DNA of 64,000 nucleotides from a virus (lineage: Duplodnaviria > Heunggongvirae > Uroviricota > Caudoviricetes): the IMG/VR virus record IMGVR_UViG_3300035182_001709. One strand, written 5' to 3'. This document shows, in pieces, positions 6,579 to 60,417 of this stretch. A model generated the notes under the pieces. The model searched no databases. It saw nothing but the letters and a program-made list of their open reading frames with translations, and was not told the DNA's origin. How positions within the stretch are numbered: the first letter of the stretch is position 1; every line of letters begins with the position of its first letter. Both the position numbers and the translations under genes were made by a program.

Positions 6579-7381
<803 letters not shown>

Positions 7382-7382
<1 letters not shown>

Positions 7383-9985: not shown

Positions 9986-10249
9986 GCGCCCATCATACTA
10001 CGGAGACGGGCTGGTGTTCACTGGCTGGTCGACTGTCTTTTGTGAACAATATTCTTGCCGCAAAAGTCTTAGTTTGAGAGTGACAATTCTGAACGTACGT
10101 GTGATGTCGTGAATCCACAAGCACACTTGATAGAACAGAATCTACCCGATCCATACGACCCATCATGGGGATTCTGACACTTTTCACACAAACTCATGTT
10201 TTACGTGTTCGAACTTAGTTCGAAACACAACTCAGTTCAAGCGGTTTGG

Positions 10250-10321
10250 ATCAGGGAGTGGGATTCGAACCCACATTTTTTCCGTTCAAAGCGGAAGGTC
10301 CTGCCGTTAGACGACCCCTGA
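10250..10321 (-). tRNA. tRNA-Gln (anticodon UUG)
   Basis: T-loop GGTTCGAATCC on minus strand; cloverleaf folded by eye; anticodon loop CUUUGAA. Confidence 0.7.
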
Positions 10322-10413
10322 ATGATTCATGCTGCCTTGTCCTGCCTGGTATAGACGATCGATCAACGTGGCTGTAACCTACGTTCCAATTGTCCCGAAT
10401 ATTCTCGGGATGG

Positions 10414-10485
10414 CTGGGAGAGGTGGATTCGAACCACCGTGAGCAGAGTCAAAGTCTGCCATCCTTGCCGCTGAATGATCTCCCA
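10414..10485 (-). tRNA. tRNA-Gln (UUG), second copy
   Basis: cloverleaf; anticodon loop CUUUGAC. Confidence 0.65.
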
Positions 10486-10498
10486 ATGTTTACATTTA

Positions 10499-10574
10499 TG
10501 GCTGCCCGCCCAGGATTCGAACCTGGATTTTCTACGTTCAGAGCGTAGGGTCCTCCCATTTAGACGACCGGACA
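10499..10574 (-). tRNA. tRNA-Gln (CUG), CCA encoded
   Basis: anticodon loop CUCUGAA; one mismatch in acceptor stem. Confidence 0.6.
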
Positions 10575-10681
10575 ATAAGCGTCACCGTGGTCTGGATCGA
10601 ACAGACGTTGCGATAGCAGCCGCATTCGCTTTCGCGTGGTAAGATTCTGTGAACCTCACAACTTTCCTCAAACACGGTGAC

Positions 10682-10758
10682 TGGCAGGGGTGCTCGGATT
10701 CGAACCGAGACGAGCCGTTTTGGAGGCGGCCATGCTAGCCGTTGAACATCACACCCCT
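10682..10758 (-). tRNA. tRNA-Trp (CCA) probable; CCA encoded
   Basis: loop CUCCAAA with C31-A39 mismatch (alternative is a 9-nt loop). Confidence 0.5.
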
Positions 10759-10779
10759 GTGAACTGAGAAGACGTATCT

Positions 10780-10854
10780 TGGCACCGGCGAGGGGGATTC
10801 GAACCCCGTTTCCGGGTAGACAGCGCGGCGTCCTAGCCACTGAACGACGCCGGC
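10780..10854 (-). tRNA. tRNA, anticodon GUC read (Asp?), atypical loop CUGUCUA (U37)
   Basis: cloverleaf with 4/5 anticodon stem; CCA encoded. Confidence 0.45.
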
Positions 10855-10871
10855 ATGATGAATGAAGAACT

Positions 10872-10945
10872 TGGCGGAGACGACGGGATTCGAACCCGCG
10901 TACATTCCCTAGACAGGGGAGTGGCCTCCAGTGGCCCACGCCTCC
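10872..10945 (-). tRNA. tRNA, anticodon GUC read (Asp?), same atypical loop CUGUCUA
   Basis: cloverleaf; short D-loop. Confidence 0.45.
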
Positions 10946-11178
10946 AAGAAAACCCGATCACGCTGAGCTTCGCGTCGGGGTCATTAGTTCGTTCTCGCAT
11001 TCACCTTCCGAGTGTTTAGCCCGGCTCAGGCGGTTACATGCGCACCCCATCACAGCGTACCCGACGTGACAAATTCATTCAGCCTTCGTGAAATGATCAT
11101 CAATGCGGTGGTACACCACCGGTCAGATGTCCTGTTCAACCCGTGCCTATTCGAGCTTACCACGCTGTGAAGCGTCGG

Positions 11179-11251
11179 TGGAGCTGATGGGATTCGAACC
11201 CACGACCTCCTGCGTGCAAGGCAGGCGCTCTCCCAGTTGAGCTACAGCCCC
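11179..11251 (-). tRNA. tRNA-Ala (UGC)
   Basis: GGGGCUGUAGCUCA... G3-U70; loop CUUGCAC. Confidence 0.8.
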
Positions 11252-11389
11252 AAATGTTCTCGGGTGTCTTTGAAGATACTTCACCAATGATTAGATCGAG
11301 GGCCTTTTTATCGATCTACACCCAAGATTCGGCTTTCACCTGCAAAAGGCGCCCTCTGCCCAAACGGTTACTGGCTACGGTGGAGCTGA

Positions 11390-11462
11390 AGGGATTCGAA
11401 CCCTCTACCTCCTCGTTGCGAACGAGGCGCTCTCCCAACTGAGCTACAGCCCCATGAAATAG
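11390..11462 (-). tRNA. tRNA-Ala (CGC)
   Basis: G3-U70; loop UUCGCAA. Confidence 0.75.
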
Positions 11463-11533
11463 GATTTTTACGATGAACTTTGACCTGAGAGGCGTTTGTC
11501 CGGTGGCCGGGTCTGATCATCACTATTCCATCT

Positions 11534-11609
11534 TGGTGGAGCACAAGGGATTCGAACCCATCACCTCTTGCATGCCGTGCAAGCGCTCTTCCAACTGAGC
11601 TAGTGCCCC
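11534..11609 (-). tRNA. tRNA-Ala (GGC), CCA encoded
   Basis: GGGGCAC... loop ACGGCAU (C33). Confidence 0.65.
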
Positions 11610-11802
11610 GCGTGCCAACAGTTACTTTGCCCGCCTCATATATGATTTCAGAGGAACATTTCATTTCACCTATTGACTTGTCCGGATCTGCGTGCATTTT
11701 CTCTGTCTAATCCTGACAGGACTTTGTCGCAGCATCCTCAGTAGTTCGGTCGCTATTGGCTTAGCGGCCTAGCAACAGGATAATCCCCGTGAGGGGGAAG
11801 TT

Positions 11803-12561
11803 TCACTTCTTGCGTCTCTCCGTGATCGTGTTGATCTTACCGCCACCACGAACGTTCGACATGCCAAGATCAATCAGGACCAGCGTCCCATCGTCACGGG
11901 TCATCATATTGCCCGCATGGTAGTCGTGAAAGTCGATGCCGAGTTCCGTCAGCGTGTTGAACATGTCGCGGAGACCGTACTTGGTGACCAGCGCATTCCA
12001 CTTGCTGTTGATGTCCTTGACGAACTCTTGAGCCTCTGGCGAGTTCAGGTTGCCGCCGTACTTCTTCTTGACTTGAGAGACGATAAACTCCTTCGTCAAC
12101 TTCTTGGCATTGTCCCAAGAGCCCTCGGCTCGCTTGATCCAGATTGGTAGACCCGTGGCAACAAGAGCGTTATTGAAGGCCTTGGCCTCGTCCTTCGGAA
12201 GCGGTTGCAACTTTTCCTGCAGGATTCCGAAAAATCCCGTGTCGCCAAAGCGCCACACCGCGTAGAAGTGAACGACGTTCTTGATGTCCTTACCTACCAG
12301 CGCCGAGGCTGCCTCAGCCTCCTTGTCGTCATTGGTCACCTTCAGGACCTTGCCCCCGCCGATGTCCAAGGCGGTTCCACGCGTTCCCGTTCCGAGAACA
12401 GGCAGTGAATCGATCTTGTTGACGTTGAGACCCAACTTGGCCATGCCCTTTGGGAACTTCTTCAACAGTTCCTTGGACTTATCAGCATCGATCGCCTCAC
12501 CTTCGCGGATGAGGATCTCGAGCAGCGTCCTAAGCCTACCTACCGTGATGACGATTGCCAT
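11803..12561 (-). CDS. protein kinase-like protein (Gly-rich loop LGTGTRGTALDIGGGKVLKV, catalytic HDYHAGNMM, DLG) carrying the N-terminal leader motif (MAIVITVGRLRTLLEILIRE)
   Basis: 252-aa ORF; kinase subdomain motifs by eye. Confidence 0.6.
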   Translation of the reverse strand: MAIVITVGRLRTLLEILIREGEAIDADKSKELLKKFPKGMAKLGLNVNKIDSLPVLGTGTRGTALDIGGGKVLKVTNDDKEAEAASALVGKDIKNVVHFYAVWRFGDTGFFGILQEKLQPLPKDEAKAFNNALVATGLPIWIKRAEGSWDNAKKLTKEFIVSQVKKKYGGNLNSPEAQEFVKDINSKWNALVTKYGLRDMFNTLTELGIDFHDYHAGNMMTRDDGTLVLIDLGMSNVRGGGKINTITERRKK

Positions 12562-12664
12562 GCAATAGGTTATTCGTTTTGGTGTGCCTGGAGGGATTTA
12601 AGCCGAACGTCTCTGGATTATGGGCCCCAGCGGGAACCGTCCCTCCTCCGGGTCAATCTAATAC

Positions 12665-12739
12665 TGGTAGCGGGAGACGGAATCGAACCGCCGACCTCTA
12701 GGTTATGAGCCTAGCAAGCTACCGCTGCTCTATCCCGCT
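12665..12739 (-). tRNA. tRNA-Met (CAU) elongator-type (or Ile2)
   Basis: anticodon arm CUAGG-CUCAUAA-CCUAG; A1-U72 paired; CCA encoded. Confidence 0.7.
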
Positions 12740-12753
12740 ATGATCTATCTAGG

Positions 12754-12825
12754 TGGGTCCGGAGGTAATCGAAACCCCACGCGCCAGTTTAAAAGACTGG
12801 TCTCTTCCACTTGAGTTACGGACCC
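12754..12825 (-). tRNA. tRNA-Lys (UUU)
   Basis: loop CUUUUAA. Confidence 0.75.
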
Positions 12826-12842
12826 AATATCACACCTTTCAC

Positions 12843-12912
12843 CTGCTACCCCCGGATTCGAACCGAGGTCTTGCAGGTTCAAAGCCTGCTGTGCTACCAT
12901 CACACTCGCATT
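12843..12912 (-). pseudogene. tRNA-like fragment or pseudo-tRNA (T-arm plus Gln-like anticodon arm, no D-arm or acceptor pairing found)
   Basis: GGTTCGAATCC T-loop and hairpin GCAGG-CUUUGAA-CCUGC, but no complementary 5' acceptor strand. Confidence 0.3.
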
Positions 12913-12928
12913 TGGTTACTTGCTGTGA

Positions 12929-13004
12929 CTGGTGCGCGAGGGTGGAGTTGAACCACCGACCCCCAAGGATAATCCTTGGTGCTCTTCTGCCTGAGCTACT
13001 CGCA
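12929..13004 (-). tRNA. tRNA with canonical 76-nt cloverleaf whose anticodon loop GAUUAUC places UUA at positions 34-36 (suppressor-like or undetermined; A33, U37)
   Basis: perfect arms, CCA encoded; loop lacks U33. Confidence 0.5.
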
Positions 13005-13005
13005 C

Positions 13006-13081
13006 ATGGTGGGGAGGGCAGGACTTGAACCTACGACCCCCGGCTTATTCTGCCGGCGCTCTTTCACTGAGCTACCTCCCC
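13006..13081 (-). tRNA. tRNA with anticodon loop AGAAUAA (AAU at 34-36; Ile-like or undetermined), CCA encoded
   Basis: perfect cloverleaf; G33; 1-nt spacer to next tRNA. Confidence 0.45.
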
Positions 13082-13128
13082 GTGACCGTCACTGTACCCT
13101 GTCCGCTAGAACGTGTACACTGACTTAG

Positions 13129-13203
13129 TGCGTCTGGTGGGATTCGAACCCACGACCTTCTAGGTAAGAACTAGTTGCTCTGGTTCCACTGAGCTACAAG
13201 CGC
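13129..13203 (-). tRNA. tRNA-Lys (CUU)
   Basis: loop UUCUUAC; one acceptor mismatch. Confidence 0.55.
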
Positions 13204-13264
13204 ATGAATGATCGAACCTCACCTTCGACTTCATGTGTCGTGTTGAGTGGTTACTATTCGATCG

Positions 13265-13340
13265 GTCGGTCCGGCGGGATTCGAACCCGCACCTGTCTCC
13301 TTAAGAGGGAGCTATGCAATACCAGTAACACCTCGGACCG
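13265..13340 (-). tRNA. tRNA-Lys (CUU) probable second copy; atypical (A8, 10-nt D-loop)
   Basis: loop CUCUUAA. Confidence 0.45.
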
Positions 13341-13453
13341 AGGTTGCGACGGAAGTTCTGCTGAGAGTTTGGCCGTCGCTCCGTGGGCTCTCATGTCTGC
13401 GCCATCGCAAGGCTACCGCTCCCACGATTACGGAGTCTGCGGTTTGTCTTGCT

Positions 13454-13540
13454 GACGGCTGGCTCACAGGGCAGGATTCGAACCCGCGTTAGGCTTTCAC
13501 CGTTACGGGTTAACAGCCCGCTGCCTGGCCACTAGGCTAC
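13454..13540 (-). tRNA. tRNA with long variable arm (type II-like), anticodon loop CUGUUAA (GUU); CCA encoded
   Basis: 87 nt; canonical T-arm and acceptor. Confidence 0.45.
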
Positions 13541-13564
13541 CTGTGAATGATGATCCCAAAGGAT

Positions 13565-13653
13565 CTGGCTGCGTCGGAAGGAGTCGAACCCTCATCCCCT
13601 CGATTAACAGTCGAGTGCACTGCCTCTCCGGCTTTACGGTTGTGCTACGACGC
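13565..13653 (-). tRNA. tRNA-like, anticodon arm CUCGA-CUGUUAA-UCGAG (GUU) with oversized D region; CCA encoded
   Basis: 89 nt; good acceptor and T arms. Confidence 0.4.
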
Positions 13654-13654
13654 A

Positions 13655-13728
13655 ATGGCTCCGGCACAAGGATTCGAACCTCGATGATCTAGTAAACAGC
13701 TAGACGTCCTCCCGTTGAACGATACCGG
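13655..13728 (-). tRNA. tRNA, anticodon GUU read (Asn?), loop CUGUUUA; CCA encoded
   Basis: canonical cloverleaf; 1-nt spacer from previous tRNA. Confidence 0.55.
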
Positions 13729-13731
13729 AAT

Positions 13732-13806
13732 GTGGCCCCCGAGGACGGATTCGATACCGTCATATCCGACCTAAGGCGGCCGGCGCTCGAGCTTGAGCTA
13801 CTCAGG
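13732..13806 (-). tRNA. tRNA-like with irregular anticodon arm (6-bp stem, 6-nt loop GCCUUA) and 8-nt T-loop; possible pseudo-tRNA
   Basis: acceptor and D arms fine; CCA encoded. Confidence 0.35.
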
Positions 13807-13855
13807 GATTTGGAACGTAGATTGTCAGAGAACAAGGAAAGGCATGCACCTTGCC

Positions 13856-13945
13856 TGGTGTAGCGGGTGGGATTCGAACCCACAATGTTCACCACATTGG
13901 GACCCGGGTTACAGCCGGGCGAGCACACCGTTGCTCAACCGCTAC
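13856..13945 (-). tRNA. tRNA-Tyr (GUA), long variable arm, CCA encoded
   Basis: arm CCCGG-CUGUAAC-CCGGG; variable-arm hairpin CAAUG/CAUUG. Confidence 0.7.
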
Positions 13946-13971
13946 ATACAGTCGATCATCGAGATGATCGG

Positions 13972-14053
13972 TGGAGTGCCTAGGAGTCGAACCTAGTTGT
14001 GCACAGCAAACTGATTTACAGTCAGCCCCCGAGCCCTACGGGACTAGCACTCC
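13972..14053 (-). tRNA. tRNA-Tyr (GUA), second copy
   Basis: loop CUGUAAA; long variable arm. Confidence 0.6.
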
Positions 14054-14272
14054 ATTTGGAGGACCCACTGCTGTCGACCACCGGTTCAGTTTCGATTTTG
14101 GCTTCTTCCTGCCATCATCTCAGCTGCCCCGGAAGCGGACGGGGCAGCGAGGCCCCCATCACACTTGCGTATTGGCATACGCGGTGGCATTATCTTGCCA
14201 CTGCTTCTGCTGATACTGCTTGTTGACGTTCGTTTTCATGACAGTTTCTTCTTCGTACGACCCTTACGGGCT

Positions 14273-14349
14273 TGGTCGACCGGGGGAGAGTCGAACTCCC
14301 GACAACACGTGTATCAGACGTGTGCTCTAACCGACTGAGCTACCGGTCG
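14273..14349 (-). tRNA. tRNA-Ile (GAU), CCA encoded
   Basis: arm CACGU-CUGAUAC-ACGUG. Confidence 0.75.
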
Positions 14350-14375: not shown

Positions 14376-14873
14376 TCAGGTTTCAGTTTCTTGTACACAC
14401 TCTTTTTTAGTTTCGAGTACTTTTTGTCTTCCATGACGTTTGCGGTTCTTCCAACCGAAGGTTGGTGTTTGAGAATGACAGTTAGGACACAAGAACCTTA
14501 GGTTGGTTCGTTCTTGATTCCTGTTGTCGCCGTCAATGTGATCAACCTGCAATGTCAATGACCTGCCGTTGTGAACAGGCGGTTGGCCGCAACACTCACA
14601 TCGATAATCACGGCCAATTTCTAGAAGGAGATCTCGTAGATTTCCAGGTTTCTCACGATCCTTCACCAGGATTTCATCGATTGATTTTGATCGCCGGCCT
14701 CGGTTCCAGGCATGGCGTGTTCCGTCCTTGTAACCACGATTTGGATCGCCACCTTCATGAACTTGCCAGATGTGGGCTCGCAGGCCCATTAACTTGAAAG
14801 TACGTGGACAGTGTGGGCAAGGATAAGTTAGAGCACTCGATTGCTTCATCCACTCTAATGATAACAGTTTCAC
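14376..14873 (-). CDS. HNH endonuclease with N-terminal C2H2-like zinc finger
   Basis: 'LQVDHIDGDNRNQERTNLRFLCPNCHSQ'; sits immediately next to the tRNA array. Confidence 0.6.
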   Translation of the reverse strand: MKLLSLEWMKQSSALTYPCPHCPRTFKLMGLRAHIWQVHEGGDPNRGYKDGTRHAWNRGRRSKSIDEILVKDREKPGNLRDLLLEIGRDYRCECCGQPPVHNGRSLTLQVDHIDGDNRNQERTNLRFLCPNCHSQTPTFGWKNRKRHGRQKVLETKKECVQETET

Positions 14874-15457: not shown

Positions 15458-16963
15458 CTAGTCATAGTTGTTATTCCATTCGACCTTAAAGACCTTGATG
15501 GGTCCGATGCCAACAACCTCTTTTTCATCTGGGAATTCATTGAAGCCGTCGACCTTGTAAAGCCCACCAGGACCCGTCAGGAAACGCTTTGGATTCTGTT
15601 CTGTCTTTGCGTGTAGGATGACGTTGAAGTTTCCATCACCCGAGCTCTTGAAGCCCTGTGCGACACTCTTGCTGGTCGACCACGAGGACGAGCCACCCCG
15701 TGGAGTGAATGTAAACGACTTGGTCACAGAACCGTGATTAGACAGCTTCTTGACCTTCAGTGCCATCTTCAACCAGTCGGCGTTGACCGACATGCCACGA
15801 TAGATGCTGCCGTTGGGCTCGTGAAAGACATCCTCGTACCATCCTTTATCGAGGAAGGTCTTCAGCAACTTGGCGTCTGCAGCGTTAAGTGGCTCGTTCT
15901 CGTTAAAGTGAGCGCTGATGTCGTTGTATAGCTCTTCTTCGCGTTCAGTGTCAGCCTCGAACGGTTTATTCTTACGGTGTCCCGGAAAGGCAAGCCGACC
16001 CAGGGGTGCCTTGGGCGGCGCCTCGGCAGCCTTCTCGACCTGTTCTTTTTCCTTGGCGATGATCTTCGGAACCTTCGCCAGGTCTGGCGGCAATGCGCGA
16101 AGGTTCGTCAGGAACCCGTCAAGCTGGTTCATCATGTTCTTTTTGCTAAATTCGTGGTTTGCCTTCTTGACCTGCGAAAACTTGAAGTCAAACAGCTTAA
16201 CGATCTTGGCGACCGCGACCTTGGAGCTAAACTTTCCGTGAAAGTCATCCATGACTTGAGCATCACGTAGGACGCTCAATGATCCTAGCCGAGAGAACAA
16301 ATTCTCTGCACGCGCCTTAGCGTTTTCACCTGAGCCATCGCGGGGCATGATGACATCGCGCAATTCTTGACTTCCGGCTAGCATCTCAGCGACCGTGGTT
16401 GCGAGTTCAACCACTTCGGCCTTCAACTTGGGATCGCCGGTAACAAACGCCTTCTCAAGCGTGGCATGTTGGACCAACGCTTTTTTCGCCAAGACTTCAA
16501 ACTTGGCGAGCGAAGCAGACATGACCTCGGCGGTGGGTGCCGCGAGCGCTGCGACCGCAGTAGACAAGGCCTTGATGGCCTTCGCGGCCTTCTGCAGGCC
16601 CATCGCATCGACTACGACGTTGGTCGCTATCCTTTCCGTTCCGTGCTCGCCATAGATGACGCTATAAATGAACTCATTGACCTCAGCTTGAGGATCGGGA
16701 TAGCTCGTCACAGCAGGAATGTGTGCATTGACGATTTTGCGAGCCTTCTCGTAAAACTTCTGAATGCCGTCGTACCACTTCTTGTTGAAGTCTGTCAGAG
16801 TACTTGTATTGCTGATCGAGTTGAACAACTTCTTGTATTTCTTCTCAAGTTCAGCGATCGGCTTGATCGCCTGAATCAAGGGGTCAAGCAGGCTCGGCAT
16901 TTGAGCCCTCTTTGTTAGAGGCGACTTCTTGATCGAAGGAACAGACTTGAAGGGCGGCGGCAC
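15458..16963 (-). CDS. ADP-ribosyltransferase-domain protein (R-S-E class; Alt/Mod-like), 501 aa
   Basis: C-terminal motifs YRGMSV (Arg), SWSTS (STS), PDEKEV (ExE). Paralog of 53340..55685 (shared LYND..AHF...SFTFTP...GPG.LY.V.GF.E). Stop is TAG. Confidence 0.65.
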   Translation of the reverse strand: MPPPFKSVPSIKKSPLTKRAQMPSLLDPLIQAIKPIAELEKKYKKLFNSISNTSTLTDFNKKWYDGIQKFYEKARKIVNAHIPAVTSYPDPQAEVNEFIYSVIYGEHGTERIATNVVVDAMGLQKAAKAIKALSTAVAALAAPTAEVMSASLAKFEVLAKKALVQHATLEKAFVTGDPKLKAEVVELATTVAEMLAGSQELRDVIMPRDGSGENAKARAENLFSRLGSLSVLRDAQVMDDFHGKFSSKVAVAKIVKLFDFKFSQVKKANHEFSKKNMMNQLDGFLTNLRALPPDLAKVPKIIAKEKEQVEKAAEAPPKAPLGRLAFPGHRKNKPFEADTEREEELYNDISAHFNENEPLNAADAKLLKTFLDKGWYEDVFHEPNGSIYRGMSVNADWLKMALKVKKLSNHGSVTKSFTFTPRGGSSSWSTSKSVAQGFKSSGDGNFNVILHAKTEQNPKRFLTGPGGLYKVDGFNEFPDEKEVVGIGPIKVFKVEWNNNYD

Positions 16964-16981
16964 AGGACTAAATATTCAGAG

Positions 16982-17158: not shown

Positions 17159-17557
17159 TCAGGCTGGCTCGCGCCACCGTGAATGACGTTTTTCTAGCAG
17201 CGCGGCAATGACCTCTTGAGCGCGCTCGTCCAAGTTCTTGGCATCGTGGTGGATGCCCTTCGTGTTGTTGCAACGCTCGCACGCCAGCGCCAAATTGTGC
17301 AAGTCGGTTCCACTGCCGCCCGCTGTCAGCGGCATAATGTGCTCAATGGTGGCCTCAGTGCGTCCTGACATCGTCACGGTCAACATGGTGCCGCAGTGGA
17401 TGCACTTTCCCACGTGAATCGACGGGTCAGTGTAGCCCACATAGAAGCTGTTGTCGGTCCGGACGATGTCGAGCACCAATTGTTCCCTTGAAGAACCTTT
17501 CGGCCTCGGGTCAGTGGCTTCTGCCTTCGACTTTTTGCCTTTTTTCTTGAGGCCCAT
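17159..17557 (-). CDS. HNH endonuclease
   Basis: 'TIEHIMPLTAGGSGTDLHNLALACERCNNTKG'. Confidence 0.6.
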   Translation of the reverse strand: MGLKKKGKKSKAEATDPRPKGSSREQLVLDIVRTDNSFYVGYTDPSIHVGKCIHCGTMLTVTMSGRTEATIEHIMPLTAGGSGTDLHNLALACERCNNTKGIHHDAKNLDERAQEVIAALLEKRHSRWREPA

Positions 17558-18597: not shown

Positions 18598-19038
18598 CTA
18601 ACGCGAGGCCAGCATTACACCGATGAGGACCAGGCCGATGCCAATCACTGACTTCAATGATGGTTGCTCGCCCAGGAACAACGCCGACAACATCAAGGTG
18701 ATAATGGGTGACGCCGAGCCCAATGCGCTGACGAGCCCCACGTCGTTGCGAATCTGCAGGGCATACATGAAGGCGATGGAGCCCACGATGTTCAAGCAGA
18801 CCGCCGCGATCGACCACAACATCCCGCGAGCGTCCCAGTCATTGTGTTGGACGAGATTCTGTTGGAGCAGGGCTAGATACAACGGGATCAATGCTGCGTG
18901 GATGATTCCCGAGATGGCCTCGAATTGCAGAGGGCGCAGACGATTCAGCGCAACCTTGCGCATCAACGTGACGATGCCGAAGACGACCGTGGAAAAGCCG
19001 ATCAACAGCGCCCGCTCTCGGGAGATTGGATCGCTCAC
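18598..19038 (-). CDS. EamA/DMT-like small membrane protein (4 TM helices)
   Basis: hydrophobic ORF. Confidence 0.5.
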   Translation of the reverse strand: MSDPISRERALLIGFSTVVFGIVTLMRKVALNRLRPLQFEAISGIIHAALIPLYLALLQQNLVQHNDWDARGMLWSIAAVCLNIVGSIAFMYALQIRNDVGLVSALGSASPIITLMLSALFLGEQPSLKSVIGIGLVLIGVMLASR

Positions 19039-19057
19039 TTAATGAAGTATCCCGACG

Positions 19058-19492
19058 TCAGCCTGGAACTCGAACATCGATGTTGATCCACCACGGGGGC
19101 ATCGGCGGTTGCACGCTGAACTTCACGTGGATCTCACCTGATTCTGCAGGATGCGATTCAAAGATGACGCCGTTACCTCGACCGTCGTTGGAGACGATCA
19201 ATGCCTTGATGTTTCCCAATTTGTCCAAGACTGGGTCGCCGGGCGCAGCGCCCAGCTCTAGGTCGTTGACCTCGCGTAGGGCCGGCACGCGACCCGCCCT
19301 GACAGATTCGATCTTGAATTTGTTGATGGTGCCACCGGTGACGAGGTTGTGCAGCGTCGAATTTACGGCGCTCTGGATGGCGCCCACGTTGAACGCCTTG
19401 TCAGGACCGAGGATATAGTTGTTGCACGTCCTCTTGACGAGGTCAGCGACCAACTTTCGAACGCGAGCAGTCTCGAGTTCAACTGACGCCAT
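19058..19492 (-). CDS. hypothetical protein
   Basis: ORF 19058..19534, start at MASVELET. Confidence 0.45.
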   Translation of the reverse strand: MASVELETARVRKLVADLVKRTCNNYILGPDKAFNVGAIQSAVNSTLHNLVTGGTINKFKIESVRAGRVPALREVNDLELGAAPGDPVLDKLGNIKALIVSNDGRGNGVIFESHPAESGEIHVKFSVQPPMPPWWINIDVRVPG

Positions 19493-19540
19493 CACAGTTC
19501 CTCTCTTTCCTCTCCACTCCGTCCATGAGAGCATCGTACA

Positions 19541-20827
19541 TCAGCCGGTCTCAAATAGACTGACGTAACGCTGTGCCACACGGTCCCACGTGTTTTCGTC
19601 AATGTAACGCAGCTGACGTTCCACCTGATCATGGCGCGCCAACGGGTTCGAAAACATCCTGTCGAGCGCCTCAGCGAGCGCCTCGGGCGTGTCAGCCTTG
19701 AGGGTGGGCACGTCAGAAAAGTGGTTGACGTTGGTGGTGACCACAGGGGCACACTTCGCCATCGCATAGCGTGCGGCGCCCGAGACGCCGAAGACCTCGT
19801 GAGCGGGGTGCGAGACGTACGGGAAGATGACGGCAGCGTTCGTCCGAATGTATGAGTCCAAGGCGGCATCGCTCTGGTAGCCCCTGATGATCGCCACGTT
19901 ATCGCGGAGGCCCAGGGAATCAACGAGGCGCATCAGCTCATCGTAGTAGACCTGGTGCTCGACGGCGTTGAAGGGCGACTCAGAGAACAGGCCTGTGAAG
20001 AAAACGTCCTCGTATTTCTTCTTGAGTTCCGCGGCAGCTCGAATCGACAGTTCCCAACCTTTATAGCGAAAGCCGAAGCCGAACTGCATGAAGGTGTGAT
20101 CAGACTTGTAGAAGTTCCACAGGCGTTCCTTGGAATCGACGGGCTGGCAACCGTGTGGGATGACAGTGACCTTGCCGGGCACGCCCTTTTCTTCCTTGAG
20201 GACCTTTGCTGCGCCCTCGAGGTGGACGACGATCTCTGGAATCGCGGCCTCAACGATCGTCTTGTCGCGGTGGTGAAAAACGCTGTGCATTGTGACAACG
20301 GGCCGCGTCCACTGCGACAGCCGCGCCATAAAGGGCAGCCACCGGCTGGCATCGGGCCAGATGCCGAACTCGTGTTGAATCCAGACGATATCGGGAGCAT
20401 ACGCCTCGAGCTCGCGCTCCAGATCGGCCAAAGATTCGCCACGCTTCCAACAGGAGACGACCTTCTCGTGAGGAAGCAACACTTCGCCCATCACATGGAC
20501 GGGCCCAGTCGGCTTGTCATTGCGCTCGATGAACAGCTTGAAGTCACCCACGCGGCGGGCGACCGCGGGCCACAGTTGCTCAGAGTAGGTGGCGATGCCG
20601 CAGCGCATCTTCCAGTTGCCGACGAACGCCACGCGCAGGTGTTTGGCAGGCCTGAAGACCTGCCGCGAGACCAGGTGACCGTTGTTGACACGGTAGCCCG
20701 TGATCAATTCTGCGTTGGTCAACCCGTCGAGGCCTTCAGGAACCTCGATGACCGTCAGATTGGGACCGCTGAACCGGTGCGTTGACACCGTAACAATGTG
20801 ATCACCTCGAGCGCCAATCCACCTCAT
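19541..20827 (-). CDS. glycosyltransferase, GT-B fold (GT4-like)
   Basis: 428 aa; C-terminal 'EVFGVSGAARYAMAKCAPVVTT' nucleotide-sugar-binding signature. Confidence 0.7.
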   Translation of the reverse strand: MRWIGARGDHIVTVSTHRFSGPNLTVIEVPEGLDGLTNAELITGYRVNNGHLVSRQVFRPAKHLRVAFVGNWKMRCGIATYSEQLWPAVARRVGDFKLFIERNDKPTGPVHVMGEVLLPHEKVVSCWKRGESLADLERELEAYAPDIVWIQHEFGIWPDASRWLPFMARLSQWTRPVVTMHSVFHHRDKTIVEAAIPEIVVHLEGAAKVLKEEKGVPGKVTVIPHGCQPVDSKERLWNFYKSDHTFMQFGFGFRYKGWELSIRAAAELKKKYEDVFFTGLFSESPFNAVEHQVYYDELMRLVDSLGLRDNVAIIRGYQSDAALDSYIRTNAAVIFPYVSHPAHEVFGVSGAARYAMAKCAPVVTTNVNHFSDVPTLKADTPEALAEALDRMFSNPLARHDQVERQLRYIDENTWDRVAQRYVSLFETG

Positions 20828-21870
20828 TTGACCTCCAGACCATCGATGAAAGATCTCACTGCTGCATCGTATCCATCGGTGGGAGGAACGTACTGCTCAC
20901 CTGAGAGCAACAATTTTCTGAACGCAACGTGAAGGTCTGCCTTGGAGATGGCGTTGAATGGCACCGCTGCAGTGGGTTGAAAGTGCTCGTCCGGCCTCAA
21001 CTTGTCATGGTGGTGAATCGACAGGCATGGAACGTTGGCCATCCTCGACAGAATCGCGCCGTGAAATCTCTGTGAGATGACAGCGCGGTACGAGGAAATC
21101 GTGGCGGTGGCGACCGTCGACAGCGTCGACAGTGTCTTGCCCCTCAGGAACTGGGTACGGCGATTCCGCATGCGACCGATGATCTCAGCCGCAGGCCAGG
21201 CATCGTCCTGATATGGGTTAAGGCAGCAACCGACGAACTCGGGCAACCAGCCGTCCGCGACGATGTCGTCGAGAAACTGCGCAAACTCATTCTTGAACAA
21301 TTCCCAACCCACGTGAGACCAGTGAGGGCCCGTGTGGTCAGGAACCGTCTCCACGTTGGGAAGAACCAACAGGCGTTTCGACGAGGCCCAGGAACTGTTC
21401 TGAACGGCGCGGAAGGAAGGCAGGGTGAAGACCGCATCAGGCAATGAGACCCAAGCGTCAGTAATTCCTAGCTGTTGCTTGATCTGGTCGCCCCTCGCTA
21501 CCGACGAGCGGTGGACAACCAGGCGAGCGCGCTTGAGCAGCTCATGGTGACCGTGGTGAATGCTGGTCTCAAGGCCGACGGAGACATAAGCCAGCGGCAT
21601 ATATGCCATGTCGATGCTGGGATCAATGTCGGGCGGACCGTCCAGCAGCGAGCCTCCACCGATGATGAGGCCGTGCAGGCCCGCAGCGGTCCGCGGGGTT
21701 AACGTGCCCGACAGCGGAACAGGTTCGGCACCGGCGGCCTGGATCTGGTTGCAGATAGCAGCGCGGAGCAACTCGTCACCGACGTTGCCCCGCCCGATCC
21801 ATCCCAGGACGCCGACCCTCAGGGCGCGGTGATGCTCCACTTGACCGTCCTCGGGTATGCCACACGCCAC
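20824..21870 (-). CDS. polysaccharide pyruvyl transferase family protein
   Basis: N-terminal 'GWIGRGNVGDELL'; 4-nt overlap with GT gene. Confidence 0.55.
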   Translation of the reverse strand: MACGIPEDGQVEHHRALRVGVLGWIGRGNVGDELLRAAICNQIQAAGAEPVPLSGTLTPRTAAGLHGLIIGGGSLLDGPPDIDPSIDMAYMPLAYVSVGLETSIHHGHHELLKRARLVVHRSSVARGDQIKQQLGITDAWVSLPDAVFTLPSFRAVQNSSWASSKRLLVLPNVETVPDHTGPHWSHVGWELFKNEFAQFLDDIVADGWLPEFVGCCLNPYQDDAWPAAEIIGRMRNRRTQFLRGKTLSTLSTVATATISSYRAVISQRFHGAILSRMANVPCLSIHHHDKLRPDEHFQPTAAVPFNAISKADLHVAFRKLLLSGEQYVPPTDGYDAAVRSFIDGLEVK

Positions 21871-22199: not shown

Positions 22200-22694
22200 T
22201 CAGGGAGAGGTCAGGTGCCGCGAACGAACGTACAACCTTTGTTGCGCCCTGGCGCCGTTGCGGTACTGTTGCAGGTCTTCCATCATGACGGAAAACATCT
22301 CGACTGTGCAGTCGTTGTCCTCGAGGGCGCGCTGAAAGGCCTCGGCGACCTCACCGTCCTCAAAGATGCCGATGATCCCATCGAATGCGCCCTCGATGGC
22401 GTCCTTTGCCTCCTTCAGGCCGCAACCCGTGTACTCACGGATGATCTTGATGGAAGCGATCTTCTTTGCAGGGTCGAAGTTCGTCAGCCTGACGATACAC
22501 GGGGTCTGGCCCAGGTTGAACATCCGCGAGATGGCCATGCCGGTGAACTTGAACCACTCGGCGATTTTGATAAGCTCCACGTCATCGGCGAAGGTGATCC
22601 AACGTCCGTCTTCTTCTGAGCCGACTGAAAACGAAATGCGCAGGCGTGTGGAACGTGGGCGGTGCTCGCCCGACTGCAGGTCATTGTCGTTCAT
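22200..22694 (-). CDS. protein with ribosomal bL12 (L7/L12) C-terminal-domain-like region
   Basis: 'ASIKIIREYTGCGLKEAKDAIEGA...FEDG..EVAEAFQRALEDNDCTVE' aligns by eye to the bL12 CTD. Confidence 0.5.
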   Translation of the reverse strand: MNDNDLQSGEHRPRSTRLRISFSVGSEEDGRWITFADDVELIKIAEWFKFTGMAISRMFNLGQTPCIVRLTNFDPAKKIASIKIIREYTGCGLKEAKDAIEGAFDGIIGIFEDGEVAEAFQRALEDNDCTVEMFSVMMEDLQQYRNGARAQQRLYVRSRHLTSP

Positions 22695-23282
22695 TTCAAA
22701 ATAATACCTCAGGTTGATGTCAATATTCACTGCAGCGCGTCTCAGTGACCAACACAGCATCTCGTGTATAAAGATGAGTTCCATGGGGAACCATCTTTGA
22801 GCTTCTCTTGCAACTTAATGCCGCTAAGCGCGATGGGGCCGATGGCGATGCATTATGCCTCATCTTCGTACTCACCGAAGCCCTCTAGGTCATAGAGGCC
22901 GTCGTTGCCATTGATGCGTTTGCCCTTAACATCAAATGGATGTAGGACGAAAGTGCAGATGGACGCGGCGCAGGTAGAGTACAACAGGCCTGAACATACG
23001 AATTTATCACCGCGCAGTTAGGTGACCAATCAATCGACTTTTCGACTAATTTCCGAGGGTCTCTCACGAGGGTTGGCGCCATGGGATGCATGGGCTTGCC
23101 CTTATAGGTGTACAAGACCCTAAGCGCGTCAATACGGACCGGTCATCCACGTGAATAGCTCAACTGAGCCTTTCACTGCGAATACGTCTCTCATCGGGCA
23201 GGCCAGTGAGTGAGCGCAGTCCTTGATGATTCCATGAAACCCGCGTGCCCACCATCATATCACCGCGCGAGATGGTGAACTT

Positions 23283-40552: not shown

Positions 40553-40900
40553 TTACGGCTTCTTAGCCTGAGACTTGCGGAGGCGTTCCGCCTTCTCCTT
40601 GTCCTTCTTTTCTTTTTCCTCGGCACGCTCGTCTGAGGTCTTGACGGTGTGCAGGGACTTCTCATCATCGAGATAGTAATAGAGGGTACGCTTGGCAACG
40701 CCCAGCTCGCTGGCTGCCTTGGCAGCATCGCCCCCGTGACCGTTTACGGCGGCGCGGACCCTGTTGCGGAACTTCTCAGGGTTGAGCTGGCGCACTGCCC
40801 CGATGTCGGTGCGCGGCCCGCCGGGCTTGGCGTGGCGCTTCTTCTCGTCGAGGAGATCCAACGTCTCCTTGATGAACTCCTTCAACAGTGCTGCACTCAT
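40553..40900 (-). CDS. Fis/NtrC-C-terminal-type HTH DNA-binding protein
   Basis: 'AAKAASELGVAKRTLYYYL'; start at internal MSAALLKEF. Confidence 0.5.
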   Translation of the reverse strand: MSAALLKEFIKETLDLLDEKKRHAKPGGPRTDIGAVRQLNPEKFRNRVRAAVNGHGGDAAKAASELGVAKRTLYYYLDDEKSLHTVKTSDERAEEKEKKDKEKAERLRKSQAKKP

Positions 40901-41134
40901 GGGTCTAAGTAGGCAGCCCGCGCTCGCGGGTGTGCAACTCATTGCACAGTTGATACCCATGAGAGGGCCCAATTCCGCAACTCACAGGTAGAGTTCATAG
41001 TCGAAGTTCCACACGGGGATGCGGGCACGGGCCCAAGAAAAAGCTTCCAACCCCGCGGCAACCCCATCTCTTTGCCGGCATTTATGCAAATGTTCTGAGT
41101 GCAAAGCTCGCTTGGGAAGGGATAGAATCTGAAC

Positions 41135-53339: not shown

Positions 53340-55685
53340 ATGAGGGCGAAGGTACAAGAAGTCGCACTGCTGTTGGAGATCAGTTTCAACGGTTTCGTTG
53401 ATCGCTTTAAGCAGCTTGCCAAGCAGATCAAGGCGACAGCTATCGTCAAGGCCATCGACTCGCTAGACGATGCGCCCCCAGGCCTCAAGGCCAAGCTACA
53501 TGACGCATTCGATGCCTGGGTGGATTCTGGCGGGCTGAGCAACAGCGGTTACTACAGTGAAGTTCTCTTCACTAAGCTGAAGGCTGCTTTGGGCAGTCTG
53601 TCAGACGATCAGCTCGATGATCTCTTTTCAAAGATCACAAACTTTGAGGCGGTCCCAAGCCACGCTGACAAGAGCATTCAGGACATTGCGTTCAACTCGA
53701 TCCTGAAGCGACTGTCACACATCCCAATTCCGATCCTGCGTGACCTCAGGGAAGACCTGCAGGACCTGCAGCTTAACGTCAAGAACCACGCCACGGCTCG
53801 TGACTTCTTGAATTACGCCCTGGGCGCAGTGATTGAAAGCAACCCGACTGAAAAGCACTTCAGGTTGCAGTCGTCCAAAGGTTACTTCACGCGCTGGTTG
53901 GAACAACTGGACAGCGAGGACGCTGAGTCCGAGATCGACAAGCTCGACAAGATCATCGCTGGGTTTGAGGCCAAGAAGGCCGAGGCCGCCTGGGACGTGG
54001 TCGACGCAGGCCGCGAATTGCTCGACCTTCTGAAGGAGAAGGTTCCGAGCGACCTAAAGCCCTACTATGAGACCGTAATCTCATACGACTACCACATTGG
54101 TATGTCGGACTACAATTCCATCAACACGTTCAATGCGTATCTTAACGAGGATGAAAACGAGTTTCTCGAAGAGTACGCAAGGATTGCAGAACGCTCGAGC
54201 AGGCTAGCGCGCAAGGTCATCACGCAGATCAAGGCAATGCTCGAGCGCGAGACTCCCAAAGCCGCCAGGTACGTGCAGACCCTGAAGGGTGAACTGACCG
54301 AGGAACAGCTGCAGGACCTGCAGACGCTCGCGGATTACGCTCGCTTCACTCACAAGTTGGGCGGCGCCAAAGTTTCAAGGGACTACTTCGGCAAGAGCAT
54401 TTGGAACTTTCCCAACGACTTTACTGACAAAATCGACAAGATCACCAAGATCGATCCCGAGGTCGGACCTAAGTCAATGACACGCTTGCGAGCTGTCATG
54501 GCCTACTCGCAGATCATCAACTCCTCTGAGTTGCATGAATACATCAAGAACCTGAGAGACGATCTCGCTCAGGTCAAGGAACAGCTCAAGGCAAAGGACG
54601 ATCCTCAATTCATTGCGTTGATCGATGGCCTGATCAAGTTGTCGGACACCATCAGATCGATGCCCGATGATGACATCGTGGATACGTTTGAAACGCTTGG
54701 ACCCGAGAAGTCATCGAACGAGACCTACTTTTGGGGCAGCATCATTTCGACAATGCGCTCCAAAGGTGATGACTTCACCAAACAGCCCAATGATCTCAAA
54801 CGCGCCCTGAAAGCATGGGCACTGACCTCAGAAGGTGACAGGCCAAAACTGCTGCAGCGCGCCAAGAAGATCGCCAGCAGTTGGATCAAAAAGACGAAGG
54901 CGAAGAACGCCGAGCTGTTGAAGAAGGCGCCTCCTGAAGCAGAGCCCTCAGCGCCCCTACAGCAGTGGGCCTTTGCCGACCAGCGCAAGGGAAAGGTTCC
55001 GTATGAGGCAAACTCGAAGGAAGAGCAGAAGTTGTACAATGACCTGTATGCCCACTTCGTCAACAACGATCCGATCTCACCCGCTCACGCTAAGCTGATC
55101 CAGTCCTTCCTGCAAAAGGGTCAATACGCTAGCGTCTTCCGCGAGCCTAAGCAGGCGTACGTCCTCCGTGGCATGAACGTTCCTGCAGATTATCTGCGCA
55201 AGGCCTTGAAGCTAAAGCCCGGAGATGATCTGCCACCGAAGGGAAACAAGGCCGCATCATTCACGTTCACGCCGTTGTCAGGTCGCGGGGCCACTAGCTG
55301 GTCATCAACGTCGCAAGGTGCTGTCAAGTTTTCAAACGATGGAGGTTACGGTTCTTACGCCATCATCATGGTCGCCTCTGTCAAGAAGAATCCAAACAAG
55401 TTCTGCATGGGACCGGGCGCTCTCTACAACGTTCAGGGCTTCGATGAGTACGAGACTGAAGACGAGGTCATTGCCTTGGGCGAGATCAATGTCTCAAAGG
55501 TCTTCTGGTCAATCAACTCCATCACCAAGTCGACGCCGGGCCTGCCAAAGGGCGGTGTTGGCCACAAGACGTTGAAGAAAAAGAAGAAGGTGGCGACCAA
55601 TAAGTCAGTGGCTAAGAAACCGATCGCCAAGAAGAAACCTGTGGCCGCCAAGAAGCTCGTCAATAAATCCACGAAAAAGAAGTGA
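53340..55685 (+). CDS. ADP-ribosyltransferase-domain protein (R-S-E; Alt-like), 781 aa, with Lys-rich H1-like C-terminal tail
   Basis: LRGMNV / SWSSTS / TEDEV motifs; N-terminus MRAKVQEVALLLE resembles leader; paralog of 15458..16963. Confidence 0.7.
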   Translation: MRAKVQEVALLLEISFNGFVDRFKQLAKQIKATAIVKAIDSLDDAPPGLKAKLHDAFDAWVDSGGLSNSGYYSEVLFTKLKAALGSLSDDQLDDLFSKITNFEAVPSHADKSIQDIAFNSILKRLSHIPIPILRDLREDLQDLQLNVKNHATARDFLNYALGAVIESNPTEKHFRLQSSKGYFTRWLEQLDSEDAESEIDKLDKIIAGFEAKKAEAAWDVVDAGRELLDLLKEKVPSDLKPYYETVISYDYHIGMSDYNSINTFNAYLNEDENEFLEEYARIAERSSRLARKVITQIKAMLERETPKAARYVQTLKGELTEEQLQDLQTLADYARFTHKLGGAKVSRDYFGKSIWNFPNDFTDKIDKITKIDPEVGPKSMTRLRAVMAYSQIINSSELHEYIKNLRDDLAQVKEQLKAKDDPQFIALIDGLIKLSDTIRSMPDDDIVDTFETLGPEKSSNETYFWGSIISTMRSKGDDFTKQPNDLKRALKAWALTSEGDRPKLLQRAKKIASSWIKKTKAKNAELLKKAPPEAEPSAPLQQWAFADQRKGKVPYEANSKEEQKLYNDLYAHFVNNDPISPAHAKLIQSFLQKGQYASVFREPKQAYVLRGMNVPADYLRKALKLKPGDDLPPKGNKAASFTFTPLSGRGATSWSSTSQGAVKFSNDGGYGSYAIIMVASVKKNPNKFCMGPGALYNVQGFDEYETEDEVIALGEINVSKVFWSINSITKSTPGLPKGGVGHKTLKKKKKVATNKSVAKKPIAKKKPVAAKKLVNKSTKKK

Positions 55686-55695
55686 TAAACGCACT

Positions 55696-56565
55696 ATGAA
55701 GATAAAGGTAAAAGACCTACGCCGCACCATCCGCGAGGCACTCGTTACCGAAGTCGGTATCGATAAGCTCAAGGGCATGAAGGGCACCTTGGGCTCCACC
55801 CATGAGATGAACGTGGCCAAATTGGTGGGCTCGGAGGAGAAGTTCTTCGTCAAGTTCTCTGACATCGCAGAGGACCTTTGGAACGAAGGCGACCCCGATC
55901 CTAGCATGCAGTGCATGAGCGAGTACCTCGCCTACAAGCTGTATGCCCTCTACCCGGGCGTCAAGATTCCCAGCCGTATTGAGTTGGTCTATGATCCTAA
56001 CAACTCACGGGTCGGTATTGCCACGGCTGCTGTCAAAGGCAAGATGGCGCTCGGTCGCATCAAGCCTCAGGCGCTGGCGAAGCAGCTCGAGGCAGGCGTC
56101 TACGTCGACATTTTCCTGGCCAATTACGACGTCATCGGTACTGGCGCCGGCAACCTGATATCGTCGGACGACGGCTCAGTCACCCGTATCGACCCGGGTT
56201 CATCGTTCAAGTACCGTGCACGGGGTGGTCGCAAGGGACCTGGCTTCAACGACAAGGCTGGTGAGCTGAACACAATGTTGGACCCTGACTTCGGCTATGG
56301 CGAGGCAGCCGGGTCAGTCTATCAGTACGCTGACCTCAAGGTCGCAGCCAAGGAGTTCATGACAGTAAGTTGGCCCGCAATCGCCGCGCGTATCGATGAG
56401 GTTCAGGGGTCAGTCGCGGCTGAACTTGAGGAGAACGGCATGGACGACCTGCTGCAACAGTGGCACGCCGAGGTCAACGACATCAAGAAGGTCCTGGCTG
56501 GCCGTTACAAGGTTGTTACAATGCACGCGCAGAAGGTCCTCGCTGCCGACAAGAAGACACGTTGA
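55696..56565 (+). CDS. atypical protein-kinase-like protein with leader MKIKVKDLRRTIREAL
   Basis: catalytic-loop-like 'DIFLANYD', 'IDPGSS'. Confidence 0.5.
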   Translation: MKIKVKDLRRTIREALVTEVGIDKLKGMKGTLGSTHEMNVAKLVGSEEKFFVKFSDIAEDLWNEGDPDPSMQCMSEYLAYKLYALYPGVKIPSRIELVYDPNNSRVGIATAAVKGKMALGRIKPQALAKQLEAGVYVDIFLANYDVIGTGAGNLISSDDGSVTRIDPGSSFKYRARGGRKGPGFNDKAGELNTMLDPDFGYGEAAGSVYQYADLKVAAKEFMTVSWPAIAARIDEVQGSVAAELEENGMDDLLQQWHAEVNDIKKVLAGRYKVVTMHAQKVLAADKKTR

Positions 56566-56942: not shown

Positions 56943-57199
56943 TCACTTTGAGCGCCAGGCAACACGGCCCCGCGTCAGGTCGTAAGGCGAGACTTCAATC
57001 GTCACTCGATCGCCGGGCAGCAGGCGAATGTGGTGGAGCCGCAGCTTGCCCGACAGGGTGCACAGCACCTTGATGCCATTGTCACAGATGACCCTAAACA
57101 GGGTTCCCGGCAACGCTTCGTCGATCATGCCCTGAAGTTCGATCGAGTCCTCGCGCTCGGGCTGCTCTTGCGCCGAGTTGCTCCAGTTCTTCTTGTTCT
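56943..57199 (-). CDS. infA: translation initiation factor IF-1
   Basis: '[66 protein letters not shown]' aligns to bacterial IF-1. Confidence 0.75.
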
Positions 57200-59459: not shown

Positions 59460-59476
59460 AGTTGGCTACTTAAAGT

Positions 59477-60396: not shown

Positions 60397-60417
60397 AAAT
60401 ATAAATATCGTCTTGAT

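Follow-up and report, generated by a model that had tools for sequence, protein, structure and literature searches.

Adenosine diphosphate (ADP)-ribosyltransferases (ARTs) are classic host-takeover enzymes of bacteriophages. They are common in jumbo phages: more than 40% of these have at least one ART gene, many paralogs often occur together, and phage G has no fewer than ten (PMC9503650); the kind of system considered here is thus already known. Among the enzymes described from phage T4, Alt is packaged in the head and injected (PMC9503650), and ModB, which has the motif R-S-EXE with R73 as catalytic arginine, modifies arginines of the ribosomal proteins rS1 and rL2 with ADP-ribose or with RNA capped by nicotinamide adenine dinucleotide (NAD) (PMC10468400). 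Here we analyse a 64,000-nucleotide stretch of Caudoviricetes DNA (IMG/VR record IMGVR_UViG_3300035182_001709), referred to in its whole length as the window, in which two open reading frames (ORFs), ORF A and ORF B, have a C-terminal domain in common. This domain is understood as the predicted enzymatic core of mono-ADP-ribosyltransferases of the R-S-E type, and we consider it likely that both proteins are active enzymes that modify host macromolecules.

A shared C-terminal domain and its family

ORF A (15458..16963, minus strand, stop codon included) encodes 501 amino acids (aa) from a GTG start, and ORF B (53340..55685, plus strand, stop codon included) encodes 781 aa from an ATG start. BLASTP aligns residues 298-499 of A with residues 516-726 of B at 45% identity over 211 aa (E = 2e-48); the two are paralogs with a common C-terminal domain of ~190 aa, as the initial annotation of this DNA had claimed. 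Outside the domain no segment of A matches B better than E = 0.27, and the N-terminal regions are therefore unrelated at BLASTP sensitivity, again in agreement with that annotation. A family hidden Markov model (HMM), run against all six-frame stop-to-stop segments, locates exactly two copies of the domain in the window, those of A and B. Seven or more metagenome contigs, the longest of 309 kb, encode proteins identical to A (from Met22 onward) or to B.

The family to which the domain belongs was revealed by an exhaustive HMM search that covered 1.84 billion cluster representatives and returned 1,033 clusters at E <= 1e-3, with 291 at E <= 1e-30; word-indexed homolog searches had returned 2, 2 and 8 proteins only. 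Neither A, nor A's domain, nor a canonical standalone member found a match by tblastn in 50,697 GenBank phages, and a single-protein scan of 185,579 species genomes gave no close relative, a scan whose low sensitivity keeps it from being evidence of absence. Conservation was counted, in ORF A numbering, over 151 representatives of the 1,033 members, each less than 50% identical to the others. R389 is present in all 151, within [YF]-R-G-M, and is followed by G390 in 149. The serine motif has the consensus [ST]-S-W-[ST], with S427 kept in 138 of the 151, Ser or Thr at position 429 in 148 and, where canonical ARTs have Thr, a Trp at position 428 that is invariant (151/151). In the E-x-E motif E482 is likewise invariant (151/151), E480 is Glu in 147 representatives, Gln in three and Asp in one, and an aromatic residue stands three positions ahead of E480 across the family. 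Complete or near-complete conservation also holds for F326, R330, P334, E336, E342, Y376, P383, A452, N457 and Y469, and all conserved family residues are retained in both A and B. Q/E-x-E alternation is known from R-S-E ARTs. With Gln as the sole recurrent substitution of E480, and with the Arg and Glu invariant, the pattern argues for active enzymes as opposed to a decayed fold. Populous, yet missed by all curated libraries and absent from the GenBank phages, and distinguished by its own S-W-S/T variant, its extra invariant residues, its arrays of up to six or seven paralogs and a modular arrangement of leaders and tails, the family is new.

The predicted catalytic domain of ORF A comprises aa 315-501 (15461..16021, minus strand), with motif 1 at Y388-R389-G390-M391 (15791..15802), motif 2 at S427-W428-S429 within SSSWSTS (15677..15685) and motif 3 at E480-K-E482 (15518..15526), the last preceded by the aromatic F477 three residues upstream. 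That of ORF B comprises aa 534-726 (54939..55517, plus strand), with L609-R610-G611-M612 (55164..55175), S653-W654-S655 within ATSWSSTS (55296..55304) and E707-D-E709 (55458..55466), the aromatic here being Y704. The positions that the initial annotation had assigned to the Arg, Ser and E-x-E motifs are those kept across the 151 representatives; what it had called an STS motif stands as a Ser motif, not in the canonical form, Trp having taken the place of Thr.

The domain is almost always C-terminal and preceded by 0-600 aa of other sequence. Out of 152 family proteins, 49 (about a third) are essentially the domain alone at ~200 aa, and the rest have N-terminal regions of 100-600 aa; BLAST sorts the 103 such regions with 100 aa or more into 71 clusters, and the N-termini are thus hypervariable. 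The variable region of A (aa 22-314, 16022..16900, minus strand) matches no family and is unrelated to that of B. For the N-terminal region of B (~520 aa, 53379..54938, plus strand) no known family was matched either; it is one of the 19 regions, out of the 103, that make up the largest cluster. Lys-rich C-terminal tails after a conserved G-L-P-K hinge are found in 11 of the 152 proteins, mostly in the long B-like group. The tail of B itself (55518..55682, plus strand) consists of this hinge and a Lys-rich segment, with 19 Lys, 5 Ala and 4 Pro in the last 51 aa; the Lys-rich ending noted in the initial annotation is thus present, and its apparent likeness to a histone H1 tail is one of composition only. 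Four proteins (P0005, P0007, P0031, P0055) have two tandem domains. The genomic context of relatives was read at a few loci. On a 277-kb contig (ENA ERZ4208449 NODE_9; L008, 7074-12945), no fewer than six genes in a run of seven encode family members, and an IMG/VR contig (L007, 2787-4584) has two adjacent members, one of them with a further Lys-rich tail, in a neighbourhood that is syntenic with that of ORF A and has an HNH gene upstream. In the window, HNH-endonuclease-domain genes flank ORF A at 17159-17557 and 14376-14873 (both minus strand), and it is the upstream one that is syntenic with the ART genes in L007.

The public gene call for A gives 480 aa from a start at Met22 and leaves out the basic Pro/Lys-rich N-terminus MPPPFKSVPSIKKSPLTKRAQ (16901..16963, minus strand). 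Relatives of A open with MPPAKKPAASKAK or MPPKKVAASKSTK, a basic Pro/Lys-rich N-terminus being typical of A's subgroup. We favour the 501-aa GTG start over the public call because of these relatives' starts and because an ATATTTA element (16969..16975, minus strand) is placed 5 nucleotides upstream of the GTG.

Predicted fold and weak, distant link to ModA and ModB

The AlphaFold2 model of the domain from 5 sequences reached a predicted local distance difference test score (pLDDT) of 79.7 and a predicted template modelling score (pTM) of 0.78; that from 12 sequences reached a pLDDT of 86.0 and a pTM of 0.81, with all five models at 80.6 or above, and the topology is the same in both. In order from the N-terminus, the model has two helices, a strand (72-79, predicted β1) with R389, a helix, a β-hairpin with S-W-S on its second strand (111-115) and a helix (118-124) with A435 and F438. 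Two more strands follow, then a loop whose last residues, E-x-E, lead into the next strand (168-172), and a final strand. The models thus predict the split β-sheet ART fold for the domain of A and B, and the features of the R-S-E clade, which are Arg on β1, the Ser motif on a strand with a helix after it and E-x-E at a strand start, are present in the model and in the 151 representatives. The initial annotation had made its assignment depend in part on the recovery of an ART fold in profile or structure comparison, and structure comparison with BFVD, given below, recovered such a fold.

Searched with Foldseek against BFVD, the better model gave seven matches at E <= 1e-3, all with 11-18% identity: uncharacterised proteins of jumbo phages (RP12, phiN3) and of a marine mimivirus, together with a head-protein-fused ART named "Portal" (E = 4e-4). 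A protein of phage G (E = 3e-3) and ARTs named "Minor capsid protein" and "head morphogenesis domain" (E = 8e-3 to 9e-3) come next, and ModA/B-type "ADP-ribosylase" and Alt entries are placed lower in the list. Structure-based identity is highest (23%) for LT and ART2.2, both R-S-E; it is 6-13% for the H-Y-E members (PARPs, diphtheria toxin), a range with which the R-S-E range of 8-23% overlaps.

Regarding the relation to known families, T4 Alt matches Pfam PF03496 with 124 bits (cut-off 23.4) and has its ART domain at aa 374-614. A, B and three relatives gave no match to PF03496 even at E <= 10, and when the 151-sequence profile was compared with Alt aa 374-640 by hhalign, the probability was 0.4%. 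A short match at Alt residue 389 (LRGY) was considered as the catalytic Arg and ruled out, the motifs of Alt being LYR-S, FVSTS and EMEV. Judged from these comparisons the domain does not belong to Alt's family, and the name "Alt-like", used as a family label in the initial annotation, has to be given up. The match claimed there to T4 Alt, ModA and ModB together narrows to a weak sequence link to ModA/ModB. With hhalign, ModA alone gave nothing and ModB alone gave E = 1.1e-3 against the 151-sequence profile. When ModA and ModB were combined in a profile of 8 sequences (from T4, S16, LF82-31, EI, ZQ3 and K65), the family profile matched it with 55% probability, E = 1.2e-4 and a score of 34.3 over 76 columns, compared with 21.3 for the reversed template and at most 18.8 for 40 column-shuffled templates. 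In the global alignment YRG falls on Y-R73-G74 of ModB, SSWT on VSFT, A..F on A..F and E-x-E on E-Q-E, and the residues E336..T339..E342..L345 of an N-terminal helix of the family fall on the ModB segment E-K-F-T-D-F-E-Q-S-V-L. The match is too weak for membership in ModA/ModB; as far as sequence comparison can place the family, the description that fits best is that of a remote sister group to them in the R-S-E clade.

Several results weigh against the assignment of A and B to the R-S-E ARTs. Scans of A, B and relatives with Pfam, NCBIfam, PHROGs and PADLOC gave no ART match, and only noise was returned (SecM, Tex_N, ZorA at 4e-3 and, within the first 85 aa of A, a tail PHROG at E = 2e-4). 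Profiles of 5 and 47 sequences retrieved nothing relevant among the PDB sequences, and the Foldseek comparison with the PDB was not significant (best E = 0.35). To this are added the probability of the ModA/ModB link, at only 55%, the unusual Trp in the middle of the Ser motif and the Ala that occupies position 427 in nine of the 151 representatives.

Proposed mode of action, N-terminal leader and genomic setting

In the proposed mechanism, the C-terminal domain would bind NAD+ and move ADP-ribose onto a host macromolecule. Arg389 on β1 and Ser427 on β2 would position the NAD+, Glu482 would be the catalytic glutamate and Glu480 would set the acceptor specificity. E-x-E is characteristic of arginine-specific protein ARTs, which makes arginine the probable acceptor here, and RNA polymerase or translation factors, put forward in the initial annotation, appear reasonable as candidate targets by analogy. 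A and B may, as also put forward there, differ in their targets. The hypervariable N-termini, together with the Lys-rich C-terminal tail of B and the Lys/Pro-rich N-terminus of A, may set the location and the target of each paralog, and a targeting role of this kind would explain two copies in one genome and up to six in a row in relatives. A may act inside the infected cell after its expression, like ModA/ModB. B would follow the route of Alt, with loading into the capsid, trimming and injection along with the DNA, so that the division of labour between Alt and ModA/ModB would be mirrored in this phage.

Capsid loading of B is suggested by its short, amphipathic N-terminal leader MRAKVQEVALLLE (53340..53378, plus strand), which ends in L-L-E, is conserved in B-like relatives and resembles the N-terminal peptides of T4 prohead-protease substrates (Alt, gp24). 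The B-like relatives P0009, P0019 and P0032 open with ..KVQE[VA]LLLLEM.., and many family members open with MKIRLSELRRLIRE-like peptides. The pattern h-x-x-h-h-x-E is found within the first 30 aa of 34 of the 152 family proteins (22%), as against 2.4% of internal 30-aa windows, and in standalone members the leader runs directly into the conserved EAPxDAPLGxxAF start of the domain. Tested on 15 T4 gene products, the corresponding regular expression matches Alt (MELITELFDE), gp24 (MAKINELLRE) and gp68, and it leaves all proteins from outside the head unmatched; MAKINELLRE of gp24 represents exactly the 10 residues cut off by the prohead protease (PMC9958956). In another phage, a family member has a leader-tagged pentapeptide-repeat protein as its neighbour and a T4-type Gp23 capsid gene at a distance of ~6 kb. 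Packaging of ARTs in phage heads is, moreover, common in myoviruses (PMC9503650). By analogy, these observations support, and do not prove, a role of the leader as a T4-type capsid-targeting peptide or propeptide. Other points speak against packaging. The leader of B lies outside the strict regular expression, so that its assignment is weaker than for neighbouring genes, and ORF A has no leader. The 64-kb window contains no prohead protease, capsid or portal gene, neither ART gene adjoins head genes, and the leader could serve another role. Taken together, we regard packaging and injection of B as plausible by analogy with Alt, the balance being roughly even.

A common leader (MKIKVKDLRRTIRE..., MRIKLGELRHIIRTILIE..., ...VGRLRTLLEILIRE..., MSAALLKEFIKE...) is found on several unrelated proteins of the window and of related loci (L007 1223-1573 and 80-487, L009 10978-12156). 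The gene next to B, 10 nucleotides 3' of it on the same strand (55696..56565, plus strand), is probably transcribed together with B and encodes a 289-aa protein that opens with MKIKVKDLRRTIREALVTE as its leader. Without a family or PDB match, this protein is weakly kinase-like at most: it has a 30-aa AGN...DDG...IDxG segment in common with a leader-tagged 252-aa protein (11803..12561, minus strand) whose kinase matches are subthreshold, and the kinase-like neighbour of the initial annotation is not borne out. Further leader-tagged products are an acidic Pro-rich 104-aa protein (51834..52148, minus strand) and a 115-aa helix-turn-helix (HTH)-like protein with a Lys-rich end (40556..40900, start at 40900, minus strand).

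The start-proximal element takes the form CTATTTA before B (53327..53333, plus strand, 6 nucleotides upstream of the ATG) and stands before other leader-tagged genes of the window as well. In all, CTAYTTA or ATATTTA precedes by 4-6 nucleotides the starts of B, of A (GTG), of two other leader-tagged genes and of two small genes of the PGDLV type described below (53327-53333 and 59466-59472, plus strand; 52153-52159, 40906-40912, 16969-16975 and 60402-60408, minus strand), with no Shine-Dalgarno sequence between element and start codon. CTAYTTA has only 7 sites on both strands of the window, 4 of them just before start codons. It could be a -10-like promoter for leaderless messenger RNAs or a phage-specific initiation signal. 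Scans for sigma-70 promoters and terminators around A and B stayed at chance level, and a k-mer search for shared upstream motifs over all window genes gave nothing general.

The window, with a guanine-cytosine content of ~58%, has a marked set of translation-related genes. An array of 21 transfer RNA (tRNA) genes on one strand (10247-14349, minus strand) includes several duplicated isoacceptors and a predicted suppressor-type tRNA with the anticodon UUA (12930-13005, minus strand). An IF-1 homolog (56943-57275, minus strand; E = 1e-21) has a ~44-aa N-terminal extension, and a protein with the L7/L12 C-terminal domain is encoded at 22200-22784 (minus strand). A Cpn60-type chaperonin (60798-62405), a sigma-70-family factor (6579-7382) and an ATP-dependent DNA/RNA ligase (1961-3319) are also on the minus strand. 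An 859-aa protein resembling vault/major vault protein (MVP) is encoded at 44546-47125 (plus strand), with matches to the MVP shoulder (E = 3e-28), Vault repeats and an SPFH/Band-7 signal; given its 40-42% identity to proteins of the huge-phage records LR756500, LR756501 and LR756503, the phage is placed as a huge phage of the LR756500-LR756503 group (462-735 kb records). Small paralogs of ~55-165 aa with an (L/R)PGDLV-type motif are found at 48386-51844 (plus strand) and 59477-60396 (both strands). Two of these (49923-50258 and 50721-51080) pass the Pfam Gp23 gathering score over 36-45 residues only (HMM 135-170 and 4-48), a match that has the look of a small module in common and not of a capsid protein. 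Genes at 18598-21870 (minus strand), located between the L7/L12 gene and ORF A, encode a family 1 glycosyltransferase, a faintly pyruvyl-transferase-like protein and an EamA-type transporter-like protein and suggest a phage sugar-modification module.

Alternative readings and comparison with known systems

The ART fold of A and B could be put to uses other than the modification of host protein arginines. The acceptor might be nucleic acid or NAD+, in the form of DNA or RNA ADP-ribosylation, of RNAylation or mainly of NAD+ glycohydrolysis, with the Lys-rich tails keeping the enzymes on nucleic acid. DarT, pierisin and Scabin ADP-ribosylate DNA or RNA. In favour of this are the repeated occurrence of basic tails or N-termini among family members, the weight of translation genes in the phage (21 tRNA genes, IF-1, L7/L12) and the RNAylation of ribosomal proteins by ModB, the nearest sequence relative (PMC10468400). 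However, basic tails are present in only 11 of 152 proteins and are hence accessory as opposed to family-defining, catalytic motifs like those of DarT or KptA are absent from the 151 representatives, E-x-E is typical of Arg-specific protein ARTs, and RNAylation would add to protein Arg modification, not replace it; this use of the fold is therefore judged unlikely. The short distance of ~1.1 kb between ORF A and the tRNA array, and the known occurrence of phage KptA homologs (PMC9503650), could instead recommend A and B as KptA/Tpt1 RNA 2'-phosphotransferases in tRNA repair. Scans of Pfam and NCBIfam gave no match to KptA/Tpt1, and paralog arrays with hypervariable N-termini fit conflict effectors, not a housekeeping repair function. 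The catalytic tetrad of Tpt1 is Arg-His-Arg-Arg. It has no counterpart in the family, in which no His is invariant (H352 in 118 of 151) and R-S-ExE is invariant instead; the KptA/Tpt1 reading was discarded on these grounds and is held to be extremely improbable. Scarcely better are the prospects of a catalytically dead ART-like module, an internal head protein or a binding module that would keep these residues for folding or for a ligand. The atypical Ser motif with Trp in its middle would be in line with such a module, as would leader-tagged neighbours that look non-enzymatic, such as the acidic Pro-rich 104-aa protein. Yet pseudo-enzymes normally lose their catalytic residues, and in the present family the Arg and both Glu are kept in 147-151 of 151 clusters less than 50% identical, the recurrent change at E480 being to a functional Gln. 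The pseudo-enzyme reading was rejected on this residue conservation and is considered very unlikely.

An alternative that concerns delivery alone has the leader sending B, the 289-aa protein and the other tagged proteins elsewhere, for example to a vault/MVP-like compartment, or acting as a translational or oligomerisation element. In favour of this, related huge phages also keep the vault-like gene, which in the window stands ~6 kb upstream of B; the tagged genes have no head genes in their vicinity, and the unusual CTAYTTA is placed just before their start codons. We know of nothing that links vault-like proteins to N-terminal cargo signals. The leader, in contrast, is a close match to known T4 N-termini cleaved by the protease, and it is also present on family members of other phages and on a member's neighbour in a Gp23-type phage, which makes a destination or role other than the capsid improbable. 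A broader proposal combines several of these elements. The address peptide and CTAYTTA would mark a cohort (B, the 289-aa, 252-aa and 115-aa HTH-like proteins and the acidic 104-aa protein) for cargo loading, be it of injected effectors or of a vault/MVP-like shell, and ModB-like ARTs would RNAylate or ADP-ribosylate ribosomal proteins in concert with IF-1, L7/L12 and the tRNAs, so rebuilding host translation; we offer this as a doubtful, speculative extension of A and B as protein-modifying ARTs.

Understood as R-S-E ARTs, A and B have importance beyond the window. With a profile for the family, a block of genes that recurs in huge phages under the label "hypothetical" could be annotated. That the enzyme is constant and the N-termini vary suggests a set of host-modifying effectors in the course of diversification. 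Through their distant link to ModB, the members are candidates for new Arg-ADP-ribosylation or RNAylation activities with biotechnological use. If the leader is a capsid-targeting signal, it would provide a sequence rule by which injected proteins could be predicted in uncultured T4-like and huge phages.

Lastly, the domain of A and B can be set beside the described ART systems. With the R-S-E toxins (Vis, LT/cholera toxin, pertussis S1, C3, iota/VIP2, Tre1, HopU1) it has the same arrangement of Arg, Ser and E-x-E and, like ARTT-loop enzymes, an aromatic residue at the third position ahead of the first Glu; differences are that no sequence-level similarity to these toxins was detected, that the Thr of STS is Trp in the A/B family and that A and B have neither secretion nor B-subunit modules. 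Phage ARTs fused to portal/MuF head proteins, and polyvalent injected proteins (Iyer et al. 2022), are among the BFVD structural neighbours of the domain at 15-19% identity. The concept of an ART delivered with the virion is alike, whereas A and B have no such fusion and any delivery would use the short N-terminal leader. T4 Alt represents the same design, in which a C-terminal R-S-E ART domain comes after a long N-terminal part without catalytic function, and its N-terminus MELITELFDE ends in hydrophobic-x-Glu as in the leader-bearing family members; unlike the A/B family with S-W-S/T, Alt has the canonical F-V-S-T-S, and it comes only 44th in the BFVD fold list (E = 0.27).

ModA and ModB differ from A and B in lacking N-terminal extensions, which amount to 314 aa in A and 533 aa in B, and from many members of the A/B family in lacking a cleavable-looking leader or a Lys-rich tail. 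The A/B family has invariants of its own (R330, Y376, W428, N457, Y469), its identity to ModA/ModB is too low for BLAST or HMMER, and ModB-like genes occur in 1,011 GenBank phages, none of which has a member of the A/B family. Nonetheless, ModA/ModB are small, standalone and phage-encoded, as is about a third of the A/B family at ~200 aa, and an aromatic residue stands in the middle of the Ser motif in both (S-F-T in ModB, S-W-T in the A/B family). They are the sole known family with a detectable, if weak, sequence link to the domain of A and B, with the three motifs and the A..F helix in register in the global alignment.

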